IMG/VR virus record: IMGVR_UViG_3300028599_000005
Coordinates: 1 to 57,007 of that record
Direction: 5' to 3' (one strand)
Source: a virus
Taxonomy: Duplodnaviria; Caudoviricetes
DNA length: 57,007 nt
Shown: positions 12,026-48,711 of the stretch, piece by piece
Layout: the number at the start of each line of letters is the position of its first letter
Position numbering within the stretch: position 1 is the first letter of the stretch
Position numbers and translations under genes: made by a program
Notes under the pieces: generated by a model
Database searches by the model: none
What the model saw: the letters and a program-made list of their open reading frames with translations, nothing else
What the model was told of the DNA's origin: nothing

Positions 12026-12901
12026 TCAGCGCTTCAGCTTGGCTGCGTAGCCTCGCGATTCCCGATACTGCTCATGGGTCATCTTATCCGGATCGAGAAC
12101 GGCGGTATCTCCGCCGCCCCCTACCGGTTCGACCGGATCGGGTGCGCTGGTGGTTTTCGGTTTCGGCTTCGCGGTTGCGAGCTTGGCTCCGATGGCGCCC
12201 ATCTCTGTCGCGGCGGAAACGGGATCAAGAAGTGCGATCCTGTCCGCCTCATCGGGATTCTGGCTAATGTGGTAGACCACATCGGGCCCGTTCGGCAGCC
12301 GCATGGCCGCCTCGCGCATGGAATCGTTCCACTGCGCGGGAGAATTATCGATCACGTCGTCGTAATCGTCGTATTTCGCGCGGGCCTCGGCCTCGCGCTC
12401 GCCGAACTGTTCGCCCAGCGTTCGTTTCTGCTGATCCTGCTTATTTTGACGCGCGGCCTCTTCCGCGCGCCTCGACGCCTCGGCTTGCTGTGCCTGAGCC
12501 TCCTGCCGCGTCTCGTGGCGGTCGAAGGCCCTGTGCGCGGCCAGCCATTCGTCGTCTGTCTCGTAGGTGTCGCGCGCGCCGGGTTTCGGCGGCGCCGTTT
12601 CGGCGGGCTGGACGCTGAGCTTGCCGCGCAGTTCGGCGGCTTCAATCTCGGCCTTGCGTGCCGCGGCCTCGGCCTGCTTGCGGCGGCCTACCTCGGAGTT
12701 GATGCGCTTGCGCGTCTTCTCCGCCTGCCTCTCGCGCGCTTCCTCGGCTTCCTGTTCCGGTGTCTTGGTCTCTGGCGCCTGAGGTTCAATTCCTGCGTCG
12801 GGCGCTGCGCCCTCGCCTTCCGGCGCTTTGGGGAGGTCTTCGGCGGGCTTGACGCCCTCGCCAGCCGTCGATGCGACGGACTGCGGGTTAGGTTCGGTCA
12901 T
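12026..12901 (-). CDS. Scaffolding protein
   Basis: Acidic helical protein between portal and coat; KYDDYD, GPDVVYH, APDPVEPVGG. Confidence 0.85.
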   Translation of the reverse strand: MTEPNPQSVASTAGEGVKPAEDLPKAPEGEGAAPDAGIEPQAPETKTPEQEAEEARERQAEKTRKRINSEVGRRKQAEAAARKAEIEAAELRGKLSVQPAETAPPKPGARDTYETDDEWLAAHRAFDRHETRQEAQAQQAEASRRAEEAARQNKQDQQKRTLGEQFGEREAEARAKYDDYDDVIDNSPAQWNDSMREAAMRLPNGPDVVYHISQNPDEADRIALLDPVSAATEMGAIGAKLATAKPKPKTTSAPDPVEPVGGGGDTAVLDPDKMTHEQYRESRGYAAKLKR

Positions 12902-12915
12902 TGGTTCCTCGGTGG

Positions 12916-14991
12916 TTAGGTGGATGAAGCGGGCTGCAACACCCGCGCGACTTCCGTTGCGACCACGGCGCTCAACAGTTCGGACAGCGTGCCGTCCTGC
13001 AGCGCCAATTCGAGTGCTTTGGCGGCGTTGTCCAGTTGCTGGCCATCGGTTTGCGCCTCGGTGCGCTCCGCCTCGGCCTGCATCTTGAATATCGACGCCT
13101 GGGATTTGGCGATTTCCGCATCGATTTTTGCGAGTTCAGCCTGTTTCCCGGCCAATTCGAGTTCGACCGCCATCTGTTCGATCTGCTGCTGTTGCTGCGC
13201 GGCCTGCTCCTGCTGTTCGCGCGCCTGAATCTCAGCCTCGTCCGGGTCATTGTCTTCCTCGGCGAGTCCCGGCGGCAGCAGCTTCCGCAGGCGTTCCGCG
13301 ATTATGTCGGCGCCGGGCCAATCCATGTTTTTGGCGATTAAATCCCCGATCGCGGCGGCGCTTTGCGGCACGGCCTGCGCGAAATCCATCATCGAGGCCG
13401 CGGATTCAGTTCTTCTGGTGGAAAAACTCGGGCCGGTCGTCACCTTGACATCGTATTTGCCGGCGCTGACATCGTTCGCCAATACCTGCTGACCATTATC
13501 GTCGAGCTTCGCGGTCCCGTCCCGATTCAGCACCGGGACGTTGATCGGCACAAAGTCTTCCGTATCGTCTTCCCCGAGAATCCGGACAATCCTCTCGGTG
13601 TCGTAAATCTTCGGGATCAGATCGACCAGGATGTCCCCGCCGTGGCTGATCGCGCGCGCGAGGTTGTCGATATAGACGAACGTGCCTACGTCGCCTTCCA
13701 GCTTGCGTTCCCGGATCGCCACCCCGGAGGTCTCGTTGCTTTGCGCGCCCAACGACGGCGGGAATATCCCCGTGGTGCCGTTCATGTCGTCCGACGCGAA
13801 CTGGGCTTCCGAGAACAAAGCCGTCGGCAATGTCGGCGGCTGGTTGCGTTGCGGCGCACCCGGCGCTTCCGGATCGGGCGTCCACGTCAGATAGGCCGGA
13901 TTGCCCTTGTTTGCGTTGTCCCAGGCGGGCTTATTGCCCTCGATCTGCGCCGCCGTTATTAGCCAGGGGGCTTTCGGGCTGGCGCTGATCGCCTCCGCGG
14001 CCATCGTGCGGGAAAAGTTGTACAGCCTTTGCGAGTCCTTGGCGAAGCGGATAATGCCGTGGCGCACCTCACGGTCCCCGATGTGGATTTCCTCGCCCAC
14101 CACCGGGATAACCGGGATATGCTTGCCGGCCCATGGCATTGGCCCTTCCAGGATTTCGGCGCCGCTCATCTTGTACCACTCTACTCGATGAGTCTTGACA
14201 TCGCGCTTGCGCGTGATTTCCAGGTCACCAAGCATCGCCTTGTCGTAATCGGTAACGTCCAGCGTTTCGCCGCTCTCCAGCAGCACCAGTTTGCGGGTAA
14301 TGGGCCGCTTGATCCAGTACTCCGCGACCCGAACGGTATCATCGCGTTCCCAGCCGGTGAAGTCCTCCGTTATTCCGGCTGCCTCAAAATCCGCCGACCG
14401 CGCCTCCGGCCATTGCGCCTCGAAATCCTCTTTCTGCAGCCGCTCAGTGACGAAACACCAGGATGCGTCGGACTTGGTAAGCTCCTCGGCTCCCGGATCC
14501 CAATAGACCGAGAAAGGATTCCTGACGCGCTTGATCCTGATGTCCTGCTCGAACGTATCGTCGTCCGAGAACTGCGTCAGGATGCGGAAATGCCCGATGC
14601 CGCAGTTCGCCGCGCTCTCCGCCGCCGTGATATAGGCGCTCTGCGCATCGCTGGCCTGCTCGATATGGCGCGTCATGCCGCTCAAGGTCTCGGCCATGTC
14701 GGCATCGGCCTCGCCACCCGCCGGCCGGACCTTTATCGACGGCTTGTTCAGGCGAATATCACCCGTGACCTGGCGCACGAACTTGCCCATCAGGTTGATG
14801 GTCAGCATCGGGCGCTCCTCGGACTTGCGCTGCGCCGCGATATCGTCCGGCCATTGTTCACCGGCGCGGAATTTCAGGTCGTCCAGTTCCTCGGCGCGCT
14901 GGTCCTGCTCCTTGCGCCAGACCCGCTCGAATCGTTTGCGGGCCAGATCGAGAACGCCGTCCTCTGTGGATTTGGCTTTCTTGACCGCCAT
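12916..14991 (-). CDS. Portal protein (P22 gp1-like)
   Basis: 691 aa; GEQWP, RPMLTIN, SNETSGVAI, GKYDV..GPSF motifs. Confidence 0.92.
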   Translation of the reverse strand: MAVKKAKSTEDGVLDLARKRFERVWRKEQDQRAEELDDLKFRAGEQWPDDIAAQRKSEERPMLTINLMGKFVRQVTGDIRLNKPSIKVRPAGGEADADMAETLSGMTRHIEQASDAQSAYITAAESAANCGIGHFRILTQFSDDDTFEQDIRIKRVRNPFSVYWDPGAEELTKSDASWCFVTERLQKEDFEAQWPEARSADFEAAGITEDFTGWERDDTVRVAEYWIKRPITRKLVLLESGETLDVTDYDKAMLGDLEITRKRDVKTHRVEWYKMSGAEILEGPMPWAGKHIPVIPVVGEEIHIGDREVRHGIIRFAKDSQRLYNFSRTMAAEAISASPKAPWLITAAQIEGNKPAWDNANKGNPAYLTWTPDPEAPGAPQRNQPPTLPTALFSEAQFASDDMNGTTGIFPPSLGAQSNETSGVAIRERKLEGDVGTFVYIDNLARAISHGGDILVDLIPKIYDTERIVRILGEDDTEDFVPINVPVLNRDGTAKLDDNGQQVLANDVSAGKYDVKVTTGPSFSTRRTESAASMMDFAQAVPQSAAAIGDLIAKNMDWPGADIIAERLRKLLPPGLAEEDNDPDEAEIQAREQQEQAAQQQQQIEQMAVELELAGKQAELAKIDAEIAKSQASIFKMQAEAERTEAQTDGQQLDNAAKALELALQDGTLSELLSAVVATEVARVLQPASST

Positions 14992-18928: not shown

Positions 18929-19077
18929 ACAGAGACAGGCACAGACCTACCGCCGCAAACAGTTCCGGGCAAGGAGTCGAACCAGCCGGATATAGCGCGA
19001 AGGCCGTGACGGTGCCAGCCAACGGAAGCAAGTCATGCTCCTGAATGAGTCCCGTAACCCTCACTGGAGTGAATACC

Positions 19078-21920: not shown

Positions 21921-22228
21921 CGTTGGCGGCGCGCGGTGACACAATCCCGAAGGCAGCACTGCAACGCGCTGGTTTGATATCGCGGGCCGGGCGCTAAACT
22001 CCGGCTAATCGACAAGTCGGGTTTTTCATGCCTGTTTTCTCAGGTCCAGACTACCGCCGCTTGTCAGTGGCACGGATACTCCGTATAGCGCTTCTGCTTT
22101 CAGCGCCGCCGCAATATCAAACCGGAATCACATATATATCAAACACCCGAGACGGTCAAGACGCACGAATCCACAGTGCTTTAATTGCGCTTAAGCCTAT
22201 ATGACCGGTCAGGTTTTTGTCAAGCCTC

Positions 22229-24319: not shown

Positions 24320-24488
24320 CTCGACCGCTTTGCAGGCTGTTGGGACGGATGGAGGCCCAGATTCGAACTGAGCGCGGGCACCAGCTTGCATGGTTTCCCT
24401 ATGCAACGCGGGAGTCGAACCCGCCCGCCGCCATGCTCCATCCTTCCGAACAGCCCGCTTCTGGAGCGGACCACAGTTGGGGTCGAGT
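24320..24488 (-). ncRNA. Structured tRNA-like RNA with two T-loop arms
   Basis: GGATGGAG/CTCCATCC closing stem, GCGGG-TTCGACT-CCCGC and CTCAG-TTCGAAT-CTGGG arms, outer stems. Confidence 0.55.
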
Positions 24489-28794: not shown

Positions 28795-29190
28795 TCATGC
28801 GTCCAGCAGCCTCTCAAGCTGCTCCACGGCGTTCGCAGGAGTGTGTGCCGATATGACGTGGTACTCATACCCAAGGGCAACTAGGCCCTCCCCAAAGGCT
28901 TTTTGCGCATCGGATTGGCCCCGACCCTTCACCTTGTTCTCGATATGCAAGAGTCGCCCGCGCATCCAAACCATCAAATCCATGGCGCCAGGCACGAGCC
29001 CCATGTCACGAAGGCTCTGCATTTTGGCGTAGTTCACCCTGCCGTTAGCCGCGAACATCGCCGAATCGTTGGGGATGGCGCAGAACATCACATCGCGCGC
29101 CAGATCGCGGCGGGACTCAAGATACTTCACCTGAGCCTTTTGCAGGTCGCTCTCTTTCCAGCCGCGCATGGTTTGTTCGTGGCGCTTCAT
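28795..29190 (-). CDS. VRR-NUC domain nuclease
   Basis: ESDLQ, AIPN, GLVPGAMDL, IENK, QSDAQKAF. Confidence 0.8.
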   Translation of the reverse strand: MKRHEQTMRGWKESDLQKAQVKYLESRRDLARDVMFCAIPNDSAMFAANGRVNYAKMQSLRDMGLVPGAMDLMVWMRGRLLHIENKVKGRGQSDAQKAFGEGLVALGYEYHVISAHTPANAVEQLERLLDA

Positions 29191-29732
29191 CCCCATTGCT
29201 CCGCCATGGCCTGTGCGATTCCGGTATATGTGCGGCTGCGCTCTTTCCAGCGGTCGGGACCGGGCGATGCCCGGTGAACACGCGCCGCCCGGCCCTCGAC
29301 AATATCTGTAGCGCGAAGCGGCATAAGGCCATCCAGCCACAGACACGTTGCCTTGGTTTCCCCGTGCCCGAACTGCCACGGGTGAATAATCTGGTCGGGC
29401 TTGCGGATTCTCGACGAGATAACCGATATCGGGTTTTCCAGAGCCTTGCGCGGTATTGGTGCGTCGAGAAGGCGCTGCACGAAATTCAGCGCCGCTATCT
29501 GTTCGGCCACTTTGTCCTTGAACCAGCGGGCGCCGGAAACCGCCAGGTGCGTACAGGGCGGATGTGCTATCATCAGATCCCAACCGTTGCCCAGAATATC
29601 AAGAACGTCGCCCTGAATATGCTGGCCGCTTGTTTCCGAAGGCAACAGGTCGCACGACCATGCGTCATGCCCGCGAGCCTTGAAGGCATCCCGCACAACA
29701 CCGGAGAATTCGCATCCGACAAGGACTCTCAT
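29187..29732 (-). CDS. Short DNA cytosine methyltransferase-like protein
   Basis: GCEFSG, IAHPPCT, ENP, PWQFGH, RSRTY..IA.AMAEQW. Confidence 0.8.
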   Translation of the reverse strand: MRVLVGCEFSGVVRDAFKARGHDAWSCDLLPSETSGQHIQGDVLDILGNGWDLMIAHPPCTHLAVSGARWFKDKVAEQIAALNFVQRLLDAPIPRKALENPISVISSRIRKPDQIIHPWQFGHGETKATCLWLDGLMPLRATDIVEGRAARVHRASPGPDRWKERSRTYTGIAQAMAEQWG

Positions 29733-41897: not shown

Positions 41898-42173
41898 ATG
41901 GTGGGAACGCGCCCCTACACCGTCGCCACTCTGGCGGAGCGCTGGCAGTGTTCCGAGCAACACATTCGCGATCTGATCAACAGGGGAGAACTGCCTTGCT
42001 TCCGCGCGGGCCGTCTGATTAGGATAACGGCTGCGGAGGTGGGGCACTTCGAATGCGGCTCAAATGGTATCGTGGAAGCTGGTACGGCGTCGATACGGTC
42101 GGCGGACGAACATGCCGCGTTGCCCTCAGAACAAAAGATCGTGGTACTGCCGAGCAACGATTGGCGGACCTGA
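41898..42173 (+). CDS. xis: Excisionase (HTH_17)
   Basis: YTVATLAERWQCSEQHIRDLINRGELPCFRAGRLIRI. Confidence 0.85.
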   Translation: MVGTRPYTVATLAERWQCSEQHIRDLINRGELPCFRAGRLIRITAAEVGHFECGSNGIVEAGTASIRSADEHAALPSEQKIVVLPSNDWRT

Positions 42174-43000
42174 ACCGCCCGCCGGTCAATGAGTCCGTCG
42201 CCGAAATATACCACGCCTATTTGGAAGACCTGACAGCCAGAGGAAAGCGCGCCGATAGAGGCGAAACAGCATGGAAAGCCCTGAAAGACACCTTTGGATC
42301 GCTGCGGCCAGATCAGGTTACAAAGACCTTGTGCCGGTCCTACACGGCACAACGGCGCCTGCAACGCCGGGCAGACGGGACAATAGGCAAAGAACTCGAC
42401 TGCTTACGGGCGGCCCTGCGATGGCACGACAGGCACACCAAGGCCAGCTTCGAAATGCCGCCCCGGCCGCCACCAAGGGACCGGCGGCTTACCAGGGGGG
42501 AATACAAACGTCTCCGGCTGGCCGCGAAGAAATCCGGCCTGCATATTTACGTTTTTGTGGTGCTGGGATTGGCCACGGCGGGGAGAAGGCAGGCCATATT
42601 GGATCTGACGTGGGACCGGGTGGATTTTCACGGTGGGCTCATCAGATTGGCCGATGGTTCGCGGGGGAAGGGAAGGGCCACGGTTCCCATGAGCAGGCAC
42701 GCAAGGCGGACTCTCGCACTGGCGCGGAGACATTCAGTCACATCGCATGTAATAGAATATGCCGGAAGGCCGGTGGGATCGGTGAAGAAAGGCTTCGCTT
42801 CGGCCTGCAACCGCGCGGGACTGAACGATGTTTCGCCCCACGTTCTCCGGCATACCGCCGCCGCGTGGATGGCCGAAAAGGGCATTCCGATGACAGAGAT
42901 TGCGCAATTTCTCGGGCATTCGGATTCGCGAATTACGGAACGTGTATATGCCCGATTTTCTCCCGATTATCTGCGGGGCGCGCTGTCGGCGCTGGAGTGA
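42053..43000 (+). CDS. int: Tyrosine recombinase/integrase
   Basis: TAGRR, K, HVLRHT, LGH, VYAR catalytic residues. Confidence 0.93.
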   Translation: MRLKWYRGSWYGVDTVGGRTCRVALRTKDRGTAEQRLADLNRPPVNESVAEIYHAYLEDLTARGKRADRGETAWKALKDTFGSLRPDQVTKTLCRSYTAQRRLQRRADGTIGKELDCLRAALRWHDRHTKASFEMPPRPPPRDRRLTRGEYKRLRLAAKKSGLHIYVFVVLGLATAGRRQAILDLTWDRVDFHGGLIRLADGSRGKGRATVPMSRHARRTLALARRHSVTSHVIEYAGRPVGSVKKGFASACNRAGLNDVSPHVLRHTAAAWMAEKGIPMTEIAQFLGHSDSRITERVYARFSPDYLRGALSALE

Positions 43001-43494
43001 CGACCCTTGCGGCCAACCTGTGTGCCGATACCGCGATGCCCTGTACAGATACTGCGAATAATGGTTCTGCCAACGTTAAATTCGTTTGCTATCGACTGAT
43101 GCGTACAACCTTCGGAGCGCAACTGCAAAATGCGGGCAATGTCGCCGTCACTAAATTTCGAGAGCGGATGTTCGTTGCCGTATGTACGACGGGAGAAATC
43201 CTGTGTGTTTTTTTCGTGCGTAGTAATGCGAAGATTTTCCCGACGATTATCAAGCGTGTTGCCATTGACGTGATCTACCACCACACCTTGCGTAGTCACA
43301 ACGTTGGCAATCAGCCGGTGCATCTGGACCCACGTAATTGGCTGTCCCAAAAAAATACCTCTTGCCGGGCGCGTGCGGGCATATTGATATTTTTCTCCGA
43401 CGTACGAAATGTGCCAATTCGTACATGCCAAGAAAGGCAGAATATCGTCATCAACCAAGACTTCGCCGCCTGTTATCTGAAATCTGCTAGCCAT
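42967..43494 (-). CDS. HNH endonuclease with C-terminal HTH
   Basis: MHRLI...VDHVNGNTLDNRRENLR; GNEHPLSK...IANEFNV. Confidence 0.85.
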   Translation of the reverse strand: MASRFQITGGEVLVDDDILPFLACTNWHISYVGEKYQYARTRPARGIFLGQPITWVQMHRLIANVVTTQGVVVDHVNGNTLDNRRENLRITTHEKNTQDFSRRTYGNEHPLSKFSDGDIARILQLRSEGCTHQSIANEFNVGRTIIRSICTGHRGIGTQVGRKGRHSSADSAPRR

Positions 43495-43652
43495 AATTTA
43501 TTTATAGCGCAATTGAACCGGGGCCGCAAGACAGGGCGCTTTCGTTCCGATGGTCCAAATGGGCCAAAGTTTCATGGTTTGTTCAGGGTCAAACAGAGCC
43601 GAAGTGCTTGTGTTTACTACAGTATATCGGTACATTGGCGAGTGGGAATTGT

Positions 43653-43698
43653 CTTCACACGGCGGGGGGCACAGGTTCAAATCCTGTCGCGCCCACCA
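43653..43698 (+). other. attP core: 3' half of tRNA-Val(CAC)
   Basis: CTTCACACGGCGG...CAGGTTCAAATCCTGTCGCGCCCACCA; 5' half absent; downstream of int. Confidence 0.85.
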
Positions 43699-43764
43699 TT
43701 TTCCTCAATAACTTACAGCGTCGGCAGACAGTTCCCTTACGTTCATTTGAACCAAGGGGATATC

Positions 43765-44121
43765 ATGACCAACGACGAAATCGACCGATTCTGGGGTTAC
43801 GTCAATAAAAGCGGCGATTGCTGGCTGTGGACGGCGGGCTGCTTCAAGCGCGGCTATGGCGCCTTTGCCTATGACGGTAAACGCCCTGGATATGCTCACC
43901 GGTTTTCGTATGAGCTACACTTTGGCCCCATCCCTGAGGGCAAGGTGATAATGCACAAATGCGACAACAGGAAATGTGTAAACCCCGCTCACCTGAAAGC
44001 TGGTACGCAGCGCGACAACATACACGATGCAATGGCAAAAAATCGCTGGATGACCAAGGCGCGCGAAAACTATCTCAGCGCCCAACCTGGCTCAATGGCG
44101 CACCGCTATCAGAAACGATGA
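43765..44121 (+). CDS. HNH endonuclease
   Basis: RFW..V..CWLW..GYG..AHRFSY...HKCDNRKCVNPAHL. Confidence 0.88.
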   Translation: MTNDEIDRFWGYVNKSGDCWLWTAGCFKRGYGAFAYDGKRPGYAHRFSYELHFGPIPEGKVIMHKCDNRKCVNPAHLKAGTQRDNIHDAMAKNRWMTKARENYLSAQPGSMAHRYQKR

Positions 44122-44155
44122 CCCCACAACCGGCTGAACGTGAAGGAAAAAATCG

Positions 44156-44380
44156 ATGAGCGAGTCAAGACTTGGTGTTGGCCCGATTTCACCATTGCCG
44201 TGGAAGGCAGTCTATCACAACGGTCCGTATGGGTATATTCGGGTTATTGACCGCGACGGGAAAGACGTTGGTATCGACGCCTTTCCTTCTCGACCGGGCT
44301 GCGACTCAGACCGTGTTCGCGCTTCGGTCCTGGCAATGATTGATATCGTCAATCATTTTCACTCCACGACCGGAGAATGA
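44156..44380 (+). CDS. Hypothetical protein
   Basis: AAGGA RBS; PLPW motif. Confidence 0.55.
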   Translation: MSESRLGVGPISPLPWKAVYHNGPYGYIRVIDRDGKDVGIDAFPSRPGCDSDRVRASVLAMIDIVNHFHSTTGE

Positions 44381-44622
44381 CGATGGCATGGCAACCGATT
44401 GAGACGGCGCCGATAAATGTTTCGGTCCTCGTATTTATACCAAACGCGGAACATTATGGGGTGGGAATTTATCGGGCAATTCACGTCGATATGGGGACCG
44501 GCAAGCGGTGGCATTGTACGGCGTTGCACATGGGCGGAGATATTAACCCGGAGTACTGGCCAACCCATTGGATGCCCCTACCCGAACCCCCGACAGAGCA
44601 AGCCGCAGAGGAGGATAAGTGA
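44377..44622 (+). CDS. DUF551-like protein
   Basis: WQPIETAP...PTHWMPLPEPP. Confidence 0.8.
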   Translation: MTMAWQPIETAPINVSVLVFIPNAEHYGVGIYRAIHVDMGTGKRWHCTALHMGGDINPEYWPTHWMPLPEPPTEQAAEEDK

Positions 44623-44882
44623 TGGCTGATACTACGGCAAATGAGTGGCGCACGCGGGCAGACCGTTGGGCAAAAGAAAATGGTCGGTTGCGCGGAGAAA
44701 TAGAGGCCCTAGCGGAATCGTCCGCGTCCGCCATCACCGAAGCCGTCGCTGCCGAGCGGAAGGCTTGCGCCGATGCCGTGCGCGCCCTGCGCATCGGTCC
44801 CGCATTCGACGGCGCGGAGCATCCGTCTACGAGGATTTTGAACAAGGCGATTGCCGCCATCGAGGGGCGCGGTACAGGTTGA
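44619..44882 (+). CDS. Hypothetical protein
   Basis: GAGGAGG RBS; AERKACA motif. Confidence 0.65.
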   Translation: MMADTTANEWRTRADRWAKENGRLRGEIEALAESSASAITEAVAAERKACADAVRALRIGPAFDGAEHPSTRILNKAIAAIEGRGTG

Positions 44883-44907
44883 GCCGGGCGGGGAAATGGA
44901 GTAGGGT
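44879..44907 (+). promoter_or_regulatory. Promoter of the ncRNA cluster
   Basis: TTGAGC-17-TAGGGT. Confidence 0.45.
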
Positions 44908-45064
44908 GGGGGATGGGTCTAGGTGAGCAGTCCTGAGACCGGTTGGTGCGGCGGGCATTCACGCTTAATCAGTCCAACCCCGGAAAGCGCGCCGGTAAAC
45001 TATCAAAGGCCAGAGGGGGTGAAAAGCCTCCTGCCAGATACGGGCCGGTAACGGTCCACGGAAT

Positions 45065-45204
45065 GCTGCGGCGGCGCGGGAGACAGGCGCGCAGGCGATT
45101 GAGGGTAGCGGCGCACCGCCCCTCATTAGTTGGATGGCGGGTAGCCTCTGGTGCGATGCGAGGCACAACGTCATCGAGAGCCGGAGTAGTGCCCGGCCCG
45201 CAGT
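45065..45204 (+). ncRNA. tRNA-like RNA of the 47-kb array family
   Basis: GCTGCGG...GCCGG-AGTAGTGC-CCGGC-CCGCAGT, then terminator 45209-45239. Confidence 0.6.
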
Positions 45205-45453
45205 TAGAGCGGCGTCCCTCCGGGGGCGTCGTTTGCTTTGTGTCTCATATTTCGCGATTCACGTTACACAACGGACTTTGTGTCGCATCGGCTTTACACA
45301 AGCCGCCCTTCACGACCGGGGCAGGAGGCGCAGGAGCAGTTTATGGGGTGGTGCCCCGGCCGCCGAATCGCGTCAGACCCAGTTAAATTTCGACAAAAAC
45401 CGCAGAAACTCGCCATTTCATACGATAGATAGGGCGGCCGCCGGATCCACTCG

Positions 45454-45750
45454 TCACTGCGCCGCCCGAATCTGGTCGCGGGTGTGCTTGTAGTCGTTTA
45501 CGAACGTCCTGAGAGCCGAGCAGCCCACTATGACCTCTGCGGCGGGGCAGGGAGGCACCCTGGCTTCCCCGGCGTCCTTGGTCCAGCCGAGTGCCTGCAT
45601 CTCCTCCAGCGCCTTCGCTTGGACCTCAGGAGCGTATTCCACCAGATCGGGGATGGCCGCAATGACGACCTCAGAACGATCCACCTGACAGGCTGTCATC
45701 AACATCGTCACTGGTAGCAGGCTTAACTTTATCCATTTTCTTTTCGACAT
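45454..45750 (-). CDS. Outer-membrane spanin (Rz1-like lipoprotein)
   Basis: Lipobox MTAC; overlaps the i-spanin. Confidence 0.7.
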   Translation of the reverse strand: MSKRKWIKLSLLPVTMLMTACQVDRSEVVIAAIPDLVEYAPEVQAKALEEMQALGWTKDAGEARVPPCPAAEVIVGCSALRTFVNDYKHTRDQIRAAQ

Positions 45751-46713: not shown

Positions 46714-46965
46714 TTACGTTGTGGCGGCTTCGTCACTCCACCGGCCTGTGGCGCGGTCCCACGTCACCTTGTCGTGGCGAATCACCGTGTCAGCCGGTTG
46801 CGCCATCCGCGTCTCATGGTCGGCAAAAGCCAGAGCAGCATTCGACGCCAAGATTTCGTTGTCGAATTCCCCAACTGGCTGACTCGATGCCTGCTCCGGC
46901 TCGTTGGTGAATTTCGTGACAACATATCGCGTCACCGGGCGCACCCGATACTCGATGGTCTTCAT
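46714..46965 (-). CDS. Hypothetical protein
   Basis: GAGG RBS; EYRVRPVTRYVVT. Confidence 0.65.
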   Translation of the reverse strand: MKTIEYRVRPVTRYVVTKFTNEPEQASSQPVGEFDNEILASNAALAFADHETRMAQPADTVIRHDKVTWDRATGRWSDEAATT

Positions 46966-47038
46966 GGTCTTTCCTCTCAGGTTGAGTGCCGCCCATAACG
47001 GGCCGGCACGGAAAAGCCGCGCGGTGGCGGCGCAAAGG

Positions 47039-47067
47039 TTGTCAATAACCGGGCTATCCTCTACAGT
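47039..47067 (+). promoter_or_regulatory. Promoter of array RNA1
   Basis: TTGTCA-17-TACAGT. Confidence 0.65.
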
Positions 47068-47073
47068 GTGGGT

Positions 47074-47231
47074 GTTGCGGCGGCGTGGATGCCGGTGTGG
47101 AAAGCCGACAAGTAGGGAGACTGAAACTCGGTCCGTGTGGCGGTTGATAGCATTCAGCAATTTAGGTCTGATCCACCGGGCCTACACAAGAATGTGACAA
47201 CTGGAGCCGGGTGGGGAATCCGGCCCGCAAC
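47074..47231 (+). ncRNA. Array RNA1 (tRNA-like)
   Basis: GTTGCGG/CCGCAAC stem, CGGCG-TGGA-TGCCG arm, GCCGG/CCGGC arm. Confidence 0.65.
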
Positions 47232-47246
47232 AGCCCCTCGGGGCGC

Positions 47247-47293
47247 GCCAGACAAAGCCCTGCCTTGCAACATAGGCGGGGTTTTGTTATGGT
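47247..47293 (+). repeat. 47-bp terminator+promoter repeat, copy 1
   Basis: Hairpin ACAAAGCCCTGCCT/AGGCGGGGTTTTGT; TTGCAA-17-TATGGT. Confidence 0.9.
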
Positions 47294-47298
47294 GGGAT

Positions 47299-47430
47299 GT
47301 TGCGTGGCGCTTATGCGCGAGAGGCCGGAAACGGGTTGTAACTCATCGGGGCGGCATTGCCGGAGAGTTTGCAGGTTAGTCTACGGTTCGACTCCGTAGG
47401 CCCGCCGGAGACCAAAACCTGACCCGCAAC
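47299..47430 (+). ncRNA. Array RNA2 with canonical T-loop
   Basis: GTTGCG...CGCAAC; CTACGG-TTCGACT-CCGTAG at 47381-47399. Confidence 0.65.
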
Positions 47431-47449
47431 ACCCGCCCTACCCGGGCGA

Positions 47450-47496
47450 GCCAGACAAAGCCCTGCCTTGAAATACAGGCGGGGTTTTGTTATGGT
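47450..47496 (+). repeat. 47-bp terminator+promoter repeat, copy 2
   Basis: Same hairpin with loop changes; TTGAAA-17-TATGGT. Confidence 0.9.
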
Positions 47497-47499
47497 TAG

Positions 47500-47616
47500 G
47501 GCCTTAAGTCCTCGCCGCCACCGCGTTAAAGCGAGGCCCAAGTCCGGTTAGTGGGCCAATGGCTCGAAACTTGGCGCGGCAAGTCGCCTGGGTTGATCAC
47601 CCGGCGTGGATATGAC
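47500..47616 (+). ncRNA. Array RNA3 (divergent structured RNA)
   Basis: Lies between a promoter and the hairpin-promoter TGGACT-17-TATTAT (47626-47654); several stems; ends approximate. Confidence 0.45.
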
Positions 47617-47659
47617 CCGCCCCGCTGGACTTCACCGTCCGGCGGGGTTATTATTGGGC

Positions 47660-47729
47660 GTTGCGGCGGGGTGGAGCGCCCCGGAGAGGTGCCTTGCCGG
47701 TGTCCATCGCGGATGGCCCGGCCCGCGAC
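47660..47729 (+). ncRNA. Array RNA4 (minimal 70-nt tRNA-like)
   Basis: GTTGCGG/CCGCGAC, CGGGG-TGGAGCG-CCCCG, GCCGG/CCGGC. Confidence 0.65.
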
Positions 47730-47746
47730 AGCCCCCGTCCGGGCGA

Positions 47747-47793
47747 GCCAGACAAAGCCCTGCCTTGCAACATAGGCGGGGTTTTGTTATGGT
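47747..47793 (+). repeat. 47-bp terminator+promoter repeat, copy 3
   Basis: Identical to copy 1. Confidence 0.9.
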
Positions 47794-47799
47794 GCGGGC

Positions 47800-47932
47800 G
47801 TTGCGGCAAGGCGAAAGCGGATTAACCACCCACCCTAGCCTGTAAGGGAGGTCACGGCCTCGGTTTTTGGTTATGGTGGCCAATTTTACTGAGGTGGAAC
47901 GCTGGTTCCTTAAAATGACTCAGGCCCGCAAC
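47800..47932 (+). ncRNA. Array RNA5
   Basis: GTTGCGG...GGCCCGCAAC, then hairpin AGCCCCGGC/GCCGGGGCT. Confidence 0.6.
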
Positions 47933-47953
47933 AGCCCCGGCTCCGGCCGGGGC

Positions 47954-48271
47954 TTATTCTGTCGGCAGGCGTTTCCTATCCGGATCCCAAGGCGACCAGT
48001 CCTTCTTTTCGCTGGCAACATCCCTCTCCACGACGGCCACCGCCTGCATCATCACCGATGCGTGGTGGATCAGGTCGCGCTTGTCGTAGTAGTGTTTGTC
48101 GTCGCGGTACGGCCCTTTGTAGCAGACGGTATACCGGTCCTGTTCGACTGGCCGGTTGTGGCCATCGTTTTCGCCGACGCAGAAGAACGATACTCCACCG
48201 TCGCTTTCAATTCTGGCAAGGGCTACGCAGTCATCGCATCCGCGCGGGCAAGAATTCGGAATCGGTATCAA
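47954..48271 (-). CDS. Cys-rich hypothetical protein
   Basis: Coupled to the endolysin stop. Confidence 0.55.
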   Translation of the reverse strand: MIPIPNSCPRGCDDCVALARIESDGGVSFFCVGENDGHNRPVEQDRYTVCYKGPYRDDKHYYDKRDLIHHASVMMQAVAVVERDVASEKKDWSPWDPDRKRLPTE

Positions 48272-48666
48272 CTGTAGGTCCAGGTATGCGGCCTCGGCAT
48301 GTGCTGTTCCGGCGTCAGGTCGTCGAGATGCACGAAGCGTTTCTCGTACGGCCCGTGCTGCTTGGCGCCCAATCCGGTGAAGCCGAACCGGTCGGAATTG
48401 CCGATGATGCGGCGTGCCGGATTGCCGCTGGCCGCGATGTCCGCCGCGTGGCCCGTGGTGTGCGGGCCAGTCAGGCCCGTGGTGCTGATCGAGGCGTTGT
48501 AGTCCGGGCAGCGATAACCCGAGGATATCGTGAAGGGGAATCCGAGTTCGGCCCGAATCGTCTGCAACCGGTCCAGAAACTCAGGGTCCATATCGGCCTT
48601 GCCACAGCAACGGCAGGCAAATTCGGTTTCGGTGAAGTTAGTCCAGCGTGTCCAGTCGAGTGTCAT
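48268..48666 (-). CDS. Endolysin, peptidase M15 family
   Basis: EFACRCCG, SSGYRC..YN, H..GHAADI, FVHLD. Confidence 0.9.
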   Translation of the reverse strand: MTLDWTRWTNFTETEFACRCCGKADMDPEFLDRLQTIRAELGFPFTISSGYRCPDYNASISTTGLTGPHTTGHAADIAASGNPARRIIGNSDRFGFTGLGAKQHGPYEKRFVHLDDLTPEQHMPRPHTWTYS

Positions 48667-48711
48667 TTCAATCCTCCAGCCGCTCAACGCGGCGTTTCGG
48701 TTTCTCGAACA

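Follow-up and report, generated by a model that had tools for sequence, protein, structure and literature searches.

An array of candidate small RNA genes in a temperate phage and its relation to a covarying, tRNA-shaped RNA family

IMG/VR virus record IMGVR_UViG_3300028599_000005, whose 57,007 bases are the window analysed here, represents a temperate phage that encodes a P22-like portal, a terminase and a major head protein. Its lysis region lies on the minus strand, with an M15 endolysin (48268-48687) and with small membrane and holin/spanin-like open reading frames (ORFs) below position 46736. A stretch of about 1 kb, bounded by ORFs of 105 amino acids (aa; 47954-48271, minus strand) and 83 aa (46714-46965, minus strand), holds an array of five promoter/RNA/terminator units on the plus strand (47039-47958). 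The units are non-coding, as stated in an initial annotation made from the sequence alone: the ORFs inside the array are without the low GC content at second and high GC content at third codon positions (low GC2/high GC3) seen in the real genes of the phage. That annotation also placed the RNAs antisense within the lysis cassette, which proved incorrect; they lie between ORFs, not opposite them. Here we describe this array together with a covarying, tRNA-shaped RNA family of phages to which part of it belongs.

The five units (U1 to U5) share their ends to different degrees. U1 (47074-47231, 158 nt) is closed by the stem GTTGCGG/CCGCAAC; its D-arm-like hairpin is shortened, its insert measures about 110 nt, and a GCCGG/CCGGC arm abuts the closing stem. 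U4 (47660-47729, 70 nt), closed by GTTGCGG/CCGCGAC, has, besides a D-arm-like hairpin and a linker of 13 nt, a GCCGG/CCGGC arm that is extended and again abuts the closing stem, so that the stacked arm annotated in these two units is confirmed in both. U2 (47299-47430, 132 nt) retains the closing stem GTTGCG/CGCAAC only; the canonical TTCGACT loop reported for it does sit in a perfect 5-bp T-arm-like hairpin (47382-47398). U5 (47800-47932, 133 nt) likewise retains only a closing stem (GTTGCGG/CCGCAAC), and a terminator-like hairpin (47848-47861) and a partial fourth copy of the module described below (47861-47879) lie inside it. U3 (about 47500-47655) carries no family scaffold. The closing stem thus starts with GTTGCGG in U1, U4 and U5 and with GTTGCGT in U2, and the 3' ends are all CCGCAAC or CCGCGAC, in agreement with the GTTGCG(G)...(C)CGCRAC closure annotated for four units. 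As also annotated, no unit encodes CCA. GTTGCGG occurs at 23 sites on both strands of the window (shuffle mean 15.45), six of them within the 0.9-kb array, and all four exact CCCGCRACASCC sites of the window lie inside the array.

The stretches that follow U1 (47232-47298), U2 (47431-47497) and U4 (47730-47799) carry a 61-nt module three times at 85-95% identity, and its 22-nt 3' end is present four times. Each copy folds into a small GC hairpin and then a 19-bp hairpin, with folding-energy z-scores of -6.0, -4.3 and -5.0, respectively; terminator-like sites were called at 47262-47282 in the first copy and at 47762-47782 in the third. The long hairpin is preceded by an A-run and followed by a T-run, and the module reads both as a terminator (hairpin plus T-run) and as the promoter of the next unit, with the -35 box in the loop and the -10 box in the T-run. 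These promoter-like sites are P2 in the first copy (TTGCAA-17-TATGGT), P3 in the second (TTGAAA-17-TATGGT, 47468-47496) and P5 in the third (TTGCAA-17-TATGGT). At three other places, unrelated sequences occupy the same register or role as the module. P1 (TTGTCA-17-TACAGT, 47039-47067; 9/12 matches in the scan) ends 6 nt before U1; U3 ends in a 12-bp terminator-like hairpin (T3, 47619-47648) that overlaps P4 (TGGACT-17-TATTAT, 47626-47654); and a 9-bp terminator-like hairpin found in the terminator scan (T5, 47933-47954) closes the array. All of the -10 boxes end 5-6 nt upstream of the first G of the closing stem. The promoter scan called P1, P3 and P4, three sites against 0.5 +/- 0.7 in shuffles, and P2 and P5, which score 8/12, were read by eye below the scan cut-off; the annotated promoter just before each unit therefore stands by scan for three units and by eye only for the other two. 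Terminator-like sites number 10, compared with 2.0 +/- 1.5 in shuffles, and five of them lie on the plus strand at unit ends. This arrangement suggests that the units quite probably give rise to separate plus-strand transcripts.

A 16-nt 5' motif common to U1 and U4 was found in 109 IMG/VR stretches. In at least 26 of them the matching 3' end follows 96-231 nt downstream; the flanks of these sequences are almost the same, and their middles are unrelated. From 23 aligned sequences, none of them from the window, a covariance model (R1) was constructed in which only three helices were supplied as structure, and a 22-nt motif of the T-like (3') arm led to at least 120 further IMG/VR stretches. Over 200 loci, R1 gave 136 matches, all of them full-length: 36 in the first hundred loci, and 100 in the second hundred (the first 100 from the 3' motif), of which 98 loci were matched. 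In the first of these sets, 100% of 578 alignment cells are paired and 7/17 pairs are changed on both sides, a result reached by none of 500 shuffles. In the second, 99.2% of 1578 cells are paired (25-42% in slid controls) and 191 cells show two-sided changes, compared with 43.4 in shuffles, again reached in 0/500; every one of the three outer closing-stem pairs occurs in all four Watson-Crick types, and all five D-like pairs covary. The T-like stem is fixed by the search motif in the second set and has three pairs with two-sided changes in the first. Furthermore, the helices of the second set hold through G-U pairs on one strand only in 13 cells. There is little doubt that a covarying, three-helix, tRNA-shaped RNA family exists in phages, and it looks like an undescribed one, with members in considerably more than a hundred other phage genomes. 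The search of phage genomes with a covariance model, as proposed in the initial annotation, thus yielded a family with covarying helices; covariation among homologues and the assignment to an Rfam family were among the points on which that annotation let its proposal depend, and the former is present and the latter was not found.

The anatomy of the family was derived from 117 members in which both arms were located and from 94 distinct members of the second set. A 7-bp acceptor-like closing stem, with its inner four pairs nearly invariant, is formed by the ends of the RNA, and is followed by a two-base linker (CG in 99/117) and a 5-bp D-arm-like hairpin that usually has GG in its loop. At the position of the anticodon arm stands an insert of 28-177 nt without conserved sequence, at least 28 nt being always present. 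A single A (114/117) then precedes a T-arm-like hairpin of 5 bp, which has 8 nt in its loop and stacks directly onto the closing stem. Overall length ranges from 78 to 228 nt (median 132). An anticodon-arm-like hairpin at the start of the insert was seen in 2/117 members against 1.85 expected, no motif is shared by the inserts (the best 6-mer occurs in 9 of 34 cores), and CCA is encoded in 0/94 members. The types of the two loops co-occur, GG with a UC-type T-loop in 100 members, GC with a GCG-type in 10 and other combinations in seven; this would fit a tRNA-elbow-like contact between the loops, or may instead reflect two lineages.

Within the window, R1 matches two strong copies outside the array, so that the set is larger than first reported: U0 (45065-45204, plus strand; 46.5 bits, E 4.5e-8) and U6 (21979-22115, minus strand; 46.0 bits, E 5.6e-8). 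In the array, U1 is matched over its full length (37.1 bits, E 3.8e-6) and U4 weakly, as a minimal member (18.8 bits, E 0.022). U5 (11.5 bits, E 0.71) and U2 (7.1 bits, E 5.7) score too low for membership, and U3 has no match. The phage therefore holds three strong family copies and several eroded ones, and the array consists of one clear member (U1), one minimal member (U4) and units that have the closing stem only or nothing. Since U2, U5 and U3 fail R1, the array may be eroded or unrelated in part. The modular family on a tRNA-like scaffold that was initially proposed is thus upheld as a covarying family with variable inserts in many phages, and does not extend to U5 and U2, which R1 fails to recognize, or to U3, which is without the scaffold.

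U0 has the stem GCTGCGG/CCGCAGT, a D-arm-like GCGCG/CGCGC hairpin and a GCCGG/CCGGC arm, and is followed by a terminator-like hairpin (45207-45234). U6 in full spans 21971-22123 (minus strand), its stem ATTGCGG/CCGCGAT being extended by eight extra pairs (22123-22116 with 21978-21971); TTGACC-17-TATATG was read by eye upstream of it and was not called by the promoter scan. U0 and U6 carry compensatory changes in two stems: the closing stem has C-G in U0 and A-U in U6 at places occupied by U-A or G-C in most members that the 5' motif recovered, and the D-like stems of both differ from the consensus on both sides. Between the last plus-strand ORF and U0 lies a non-coding leader of 180 nt (44884-45064, plus strand), with a 15-nt near-copy (93%) of the U1 T-like arm at 44881-44895 and a weak promoter-like TTGAGC-17-TAGGGT read by eye; because the leader shows only this weak site, U0 may be cut out of a longer transcript. 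Two further places in the window recall parts of a tRNA. At 18950-18990 (minus strand), TTGCGGCGG, with which the family 5' motif begins, stands 15 nt after a T-loop-like 11-mer, GGTTCGACTCC; this may be a remnant of the family, and R1 does not match it. At 24340-24450 (minus strand), a non-coding stretch that folds well (z -2.97) has an 8-bp closing stem enclosing two canonical T-arm hairpins that are separated by 52 nt. ARAGORN reports it as a tRNA, with an 'anticodon' of 2 nt, at the 90% threshold only; neither R1 nor Rfam matches it, and it is a second kind of tRNA-like element in the phage.

Family members usually stand as their own unit or inside tRNA operons. Seven of 36 lie within 1 kb of a tRNA gene, and three of the 36 lie 8-14 nt upstream of a tRNA gene on the same strand, one of these three having another tRNA 140 nt upstream. 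There is no fixed protein partner; neighbours are heterogeneous, and the commonest PHROG accounts for 4/150 flanking ORFs. A TAnnnT box is found 4-9 nt upstream of 15/94 members, compared with 2.9% at random places. Six loci hold two copies each, and in two of them these form divergent pairs separated by a shared gap of about 100-120 nt (L222, 779-905 minus and 1002-1139 plus; L182, 808-912 minus and 1034-1176 plus). Such back-to-back pairs are another recurrent mode of clustering, in which divergent transcription would start from the shared gap.

Copies were also found in a Caulobacter phage and in bacterial genomes. Caulobacter phage DMCA, which infects C. vibrioides CB15, has one unannotated copy (PQ480021.1, 25554-25686; 74.6 bits), located 108 nt downstream of an annotated transposase gene on the same strand and 309 nt from an opposite-strand integrase gene (L239). 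Two Komagataeibacter phages match the 3' end only. Among 151 alphaproteobacterial genomes R1 was found in three, a figure that says little on prevalence because only 20 candidates were scored per genome. A prophage copy in genome G456 (59.4 bits) has three compensatory pairs in the closing stem. This copy (L236, 12141-12299, minus strand) adjoins a 60%-identical homologue (12432-13019) of the window ORF at 29187-29732; the tRNA-Val gene closest in sequence to the attP of the phage is about 27 kb away. The attP-like copy in the window (43650-43700, plus strand) comprises the last 48-51 nt of tRNA-Val(CAC), ACCA included, and matches tRNA-Val genes in 203/401 alphaproteobacterial genomes at up to 94% identity (this tally and that of the loose pattern below take in genomes G644 and G445, and no claim depends on those two specifically). 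It adjoins an integrase-like ORF and two HNH endonuclease ORFs (42053-43000 plus, 42967-43494 minus and 43765-44121 plus); the 616-aa ORF at 42271-44121 is probably not a single gene.

Searches against known families gave no assignment. With default settings, ARAGORN finds no tRNA and no tmRNA in the window, and Rfam 15 at gathering scores gives no match anywhere in it; at E up to 10, the regions 46900-48050 and 44100-45500 and one canonical family member give only weak chance matches, such as sX13 (E 0.24). The family is absent from Rfam 15. A pseudo-tRNA in U2 is called by ARAGORN at the 80% threshold, at which 52 'genes' appear in the window, and was rejected as noise, as was the intron mode. 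The array DNA itself has no match in the 'phages' collection, and the module pattern has none in IMG/VR. The 16-nt pattern of the 3' end recovers 40 IMG/VR stretches, all apparently chance or coding and none with the paired 5' motif. A loose pattern, GCCGG-N8-CCGGCCCGC, was as frequent in 401 genomes as its reversed control and is uninformative. No similar array was found near relatives of the endolysin (34 loci), the 83-aa protein (two), the 664-aa protein (zero) or the 105-aa protein (one distant relative, in metagenomes), and prophages with a related portal do not have this endolysin.

Related phages are represented by DNA contigs of runs X2 and X3 from another sediment study, which share 13-20% of the region's sampled words. 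Their sequences join position 47073 to 47660 through 10 shared bases, and further joints connect 47675 with 47933, 47493 with 47964, 47496 with 47924 and 47032 with 47716. The content of the array therefore differs between close relatives at the conserved ends and modules; the joints do not show the replacing sequence. In run X2, a stretch of 16 letters stands in place of 46716-47035, which holds the 83-aa gene and the region upstream of it. Since the 83-aa gene is replaced in a related phage, it is accessory, as is the array that it adjoins.

We propose that these tandem small RNA genes are members or derivatives of a tRNA-shaped RNA family that is widespread in alphaproteobacterial phages. 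Four to five of the units are linked by a duplicated element that reads as both terminator and next promoter. Transcripts of the plus strand would have the first base of the closing stem as their start and would terminate at the hairpins. Owing to its tRNA-like frame, the RNA would be trimmed and stabilized by the tRNA maturation and protection machinery of the cell, as happens with engineered tRNA scaffolds; such processing is plausible because three family members sit 8-14 nt upstream of same-strand tRNA genes. The active portion would be the insert, with host or phage molecules as its targets in trans during the time when the late lysis genes of the opposite strand are silent, and the conserved module and stem ends would be recombination points at which units are shuffled. 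On balance we favor this reading as a whole, that is, an array of the tRNA-shaped family acting as a natural tRNA scaffold with variable RNA payloads; for the narrower claim that the insert is a payload, we would put the chances slightly short of even. A wider version is unlikely to hold in full: that the host tRNA machinery recognizes and protects the frame, and that swappable payloads (decoys, sponges, aptamers or short-seed regulators) are carried in individually promoted arrays recombining at ends and linkers, as an RNA counterpart of gene-cassette arrays that possibly acts against host immunity.

It should be noted that several results weigh against the proposed scaffold. Both covariation alignments were fitted to R1, and their members were found by exact motifs that fix parts of the helices. 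The shape by itself is nothing special, since a generic descriptor of a stem plus two hairpins gives 180 matches in the window. Taken alone, the units have unremarkable minimum free energies (z -0.6 to -2.4, the latter in U3) and are not stabler than shuffles; three of the five fail R1; no promoter-like site was found directly upstream of U0; and a strict -10-like box precedes just 15/94 family members. Conservation of the scaffold and not of the insert would also fit a scaffold that is itself the functional part. Moreover, the targets that the initial annotation proposed to seek by complementarity were not convincingly found in the phage, in the flanks of family members or in two host genomes. 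Complementarity between the cores and the rest of the phage does not exceed 13 nt, which is at chance level; the longest match of 135 cores to their own loci averages 10.1 nt (10.0 when shuffled), with none of 14 nt or more; and two prophage copies compared with their host genomes gave nothing below E 0.05. The array searched against 401 Rhodobacterales genomes gave seven matches at E up to 1e-3, all attributable on closer examination to chance or to coding sequence. One candidate, antisense pairing to the start of a leuD-like gene, was rejected as chance after a second set of 401 genomes gave five unrelated matches.

The main rival to the payload reading is that the scaffold itself is functional, as a tRNA mimic that binds or titrates a host factor handling or sensing tRNA, with the insert merely tolerated and additional copies raising the dose. 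We regard this explanation as rather improbable. Conservation is concentrated where it would predict, in the inner four stem pairs, the CG linker, the single A and both loops, and the inserts share no motif and have no detectable targets. It fits less well with the insert of at least 28 nt present in every member, with the several phages that keep two or more copies with unrelated inserts, and with the array, in which the scaffold is eroded (U2 and U5) while promoters and terminators stay.

A second alternative, which we consider improbable, is that the array is mostly debris, with U1 and perhaps U4 working and the remainder consisting of eroded duplicates and a repeated bidirectional terminator that insulates the holin/spanin genes from upstream transcription. 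The failure of U2, U5 and U3 against R1, the relatives without parts of the array and the folding of the modules, which is far better than that of the units, all agree with it, and the module hairpin could terminate both strands because it has an A-run before and a T-run after it. Debris would hardly account for the non-homologous promoter/terminator pairs (P1, T3/P4 and T5) that keep the register of the module, for the -10 boxes that all end 5-6 nt before the closing stem, or for the closing-stem motif retained in four units.

It is very improbable that the units are not RNA genes but tRNA genes in decay, or a cassette or miniature mobile element system at the DNA level with inverted repeats (integron attC-like or of the miniature inverted-repeat transposable element, MITE, type). 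The ends are indeed inverted repeats of the AAC/GTT type, content varies between relatives with joints at repeats, contexts are heterogeneous with several copies per genome, and U2 has a T-arm-like hairpin. These readings are opposed by the failure of default ARAGORN and of the Rfam tRNA model to find anything (relaxed ARAGORN giving 52 'genes' in the window), by the chance frequency of anticodon-arm-like hairpins (2/117 vs 1.85 expected), and by the U2 stretch, which matched no tRNA in the 401 alphaproteobacterial genomes, whereas the attP fragment matched tRNA-Val in 203 of them; they are likewise opposed by pairing kept through one-strand G-U pairs (13 cells), by members in tRNA operons on the tRNA strand and by the lack of a recombinase or transposase as regular neighbor. 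An integron attC array in particular, whose sites have the form RYYYAAC...GTTRRRY, was rejected: the ends fit 5/7 positions each by eye, the module has two hairpins inside the stem, the units are non-coding and 70-158 nt long, and the sole recombinase seen is the phage integrase-like ORF beside the tRNA-Val attP. Readings as a MITE, a retron, a CRISPR mimic or a small ORF were likewise weighed and not retained.

Among known RNAs, tRNA (RF00005) is the obvious point of comparison for the proposed scaffold. The family resembles it in the 7-bp terminal stem on a 5-bp T-like arm, in the D-like hairpin that follows two bases on with GG usual, and in the location of some members in tRNA operons, but differs in having no anticodon arm, an 8-nt T-like loop, no encoded CCA and C at the position of U8 in tRNA, and it escapes both ARAGORN and the Rfam tRNA model. 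The C4 RNAs of P1 and P7 and the CI RNA of P4 are small phage RNAs whose ends pair in an acceptor-like manner and whose variable loops carry specificity, C4 being cut by RNase P. The family shares with them the small size, the phage origin and the acceptor-like stem. However, the likeness to C4 (RF01695) suggested in the initial annotation did not bear out: at E up to 10 the C4 model finds nothing in the two regions searched or in the canonical member, no unit is assigned to another Rfam model, D- and T-like arms are not C4 features, and no antisense target was found. Engineered tRNA scaffolds and the individually promoted tRNA-like/miRNA units of gammaherpesvirus 68 carry foreign RNA in a tRNA frame at or next to the place of the anticodon arm; the former are man-made and the latter eukaryotic, whereas the family is found in phages and is a candidate for tRNA-type processing. 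The tRNA-like domains of tmRNA and of YrlA, a Y-RNA-like RNA, are mimics without an anticodon arm that have another domain instead, and in YrlA the ends of the RNA lie in the other stem. ARAGORN finds no tmRNA in the window, and the family has no tag reading frame and no Rfam match. Phage T4 encodes the small stable RNAs 'species 1 and 2', of unknown role, in its tRNA cluster; these and the family are both phage-encoded, tRNA-associated small RNAs. As described, RNA anti-CRISPRs and viral single guide RNAs (PMC10651486; 10.64898/2026.06.01.729453) differ in architecture from the conserved ends and variable middle of the family. Full-text literature searches found no description of the family; it may already be among the 8,495 unnamed candidate structured RNAs that a 2023 study catalogued from IMG/VR (PMC10690425).

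If expressed, the family would be an abundant class of phage RNA that is missing from Rfam 15. If the proposed reading is true, phages use the tRNA frame to carry diverse RNA domains. To our knowledge, tRNA frames have so far served in this way in engineered constructs and in a single group of animal viruses. A tractable test system exists in Caulobacter phage DMCA, which has one strong copy, grown on C. vibrioides CB15, and the family would add a candidate class for studies of phage small RNAs, tRNA mimicry and counter-defence.

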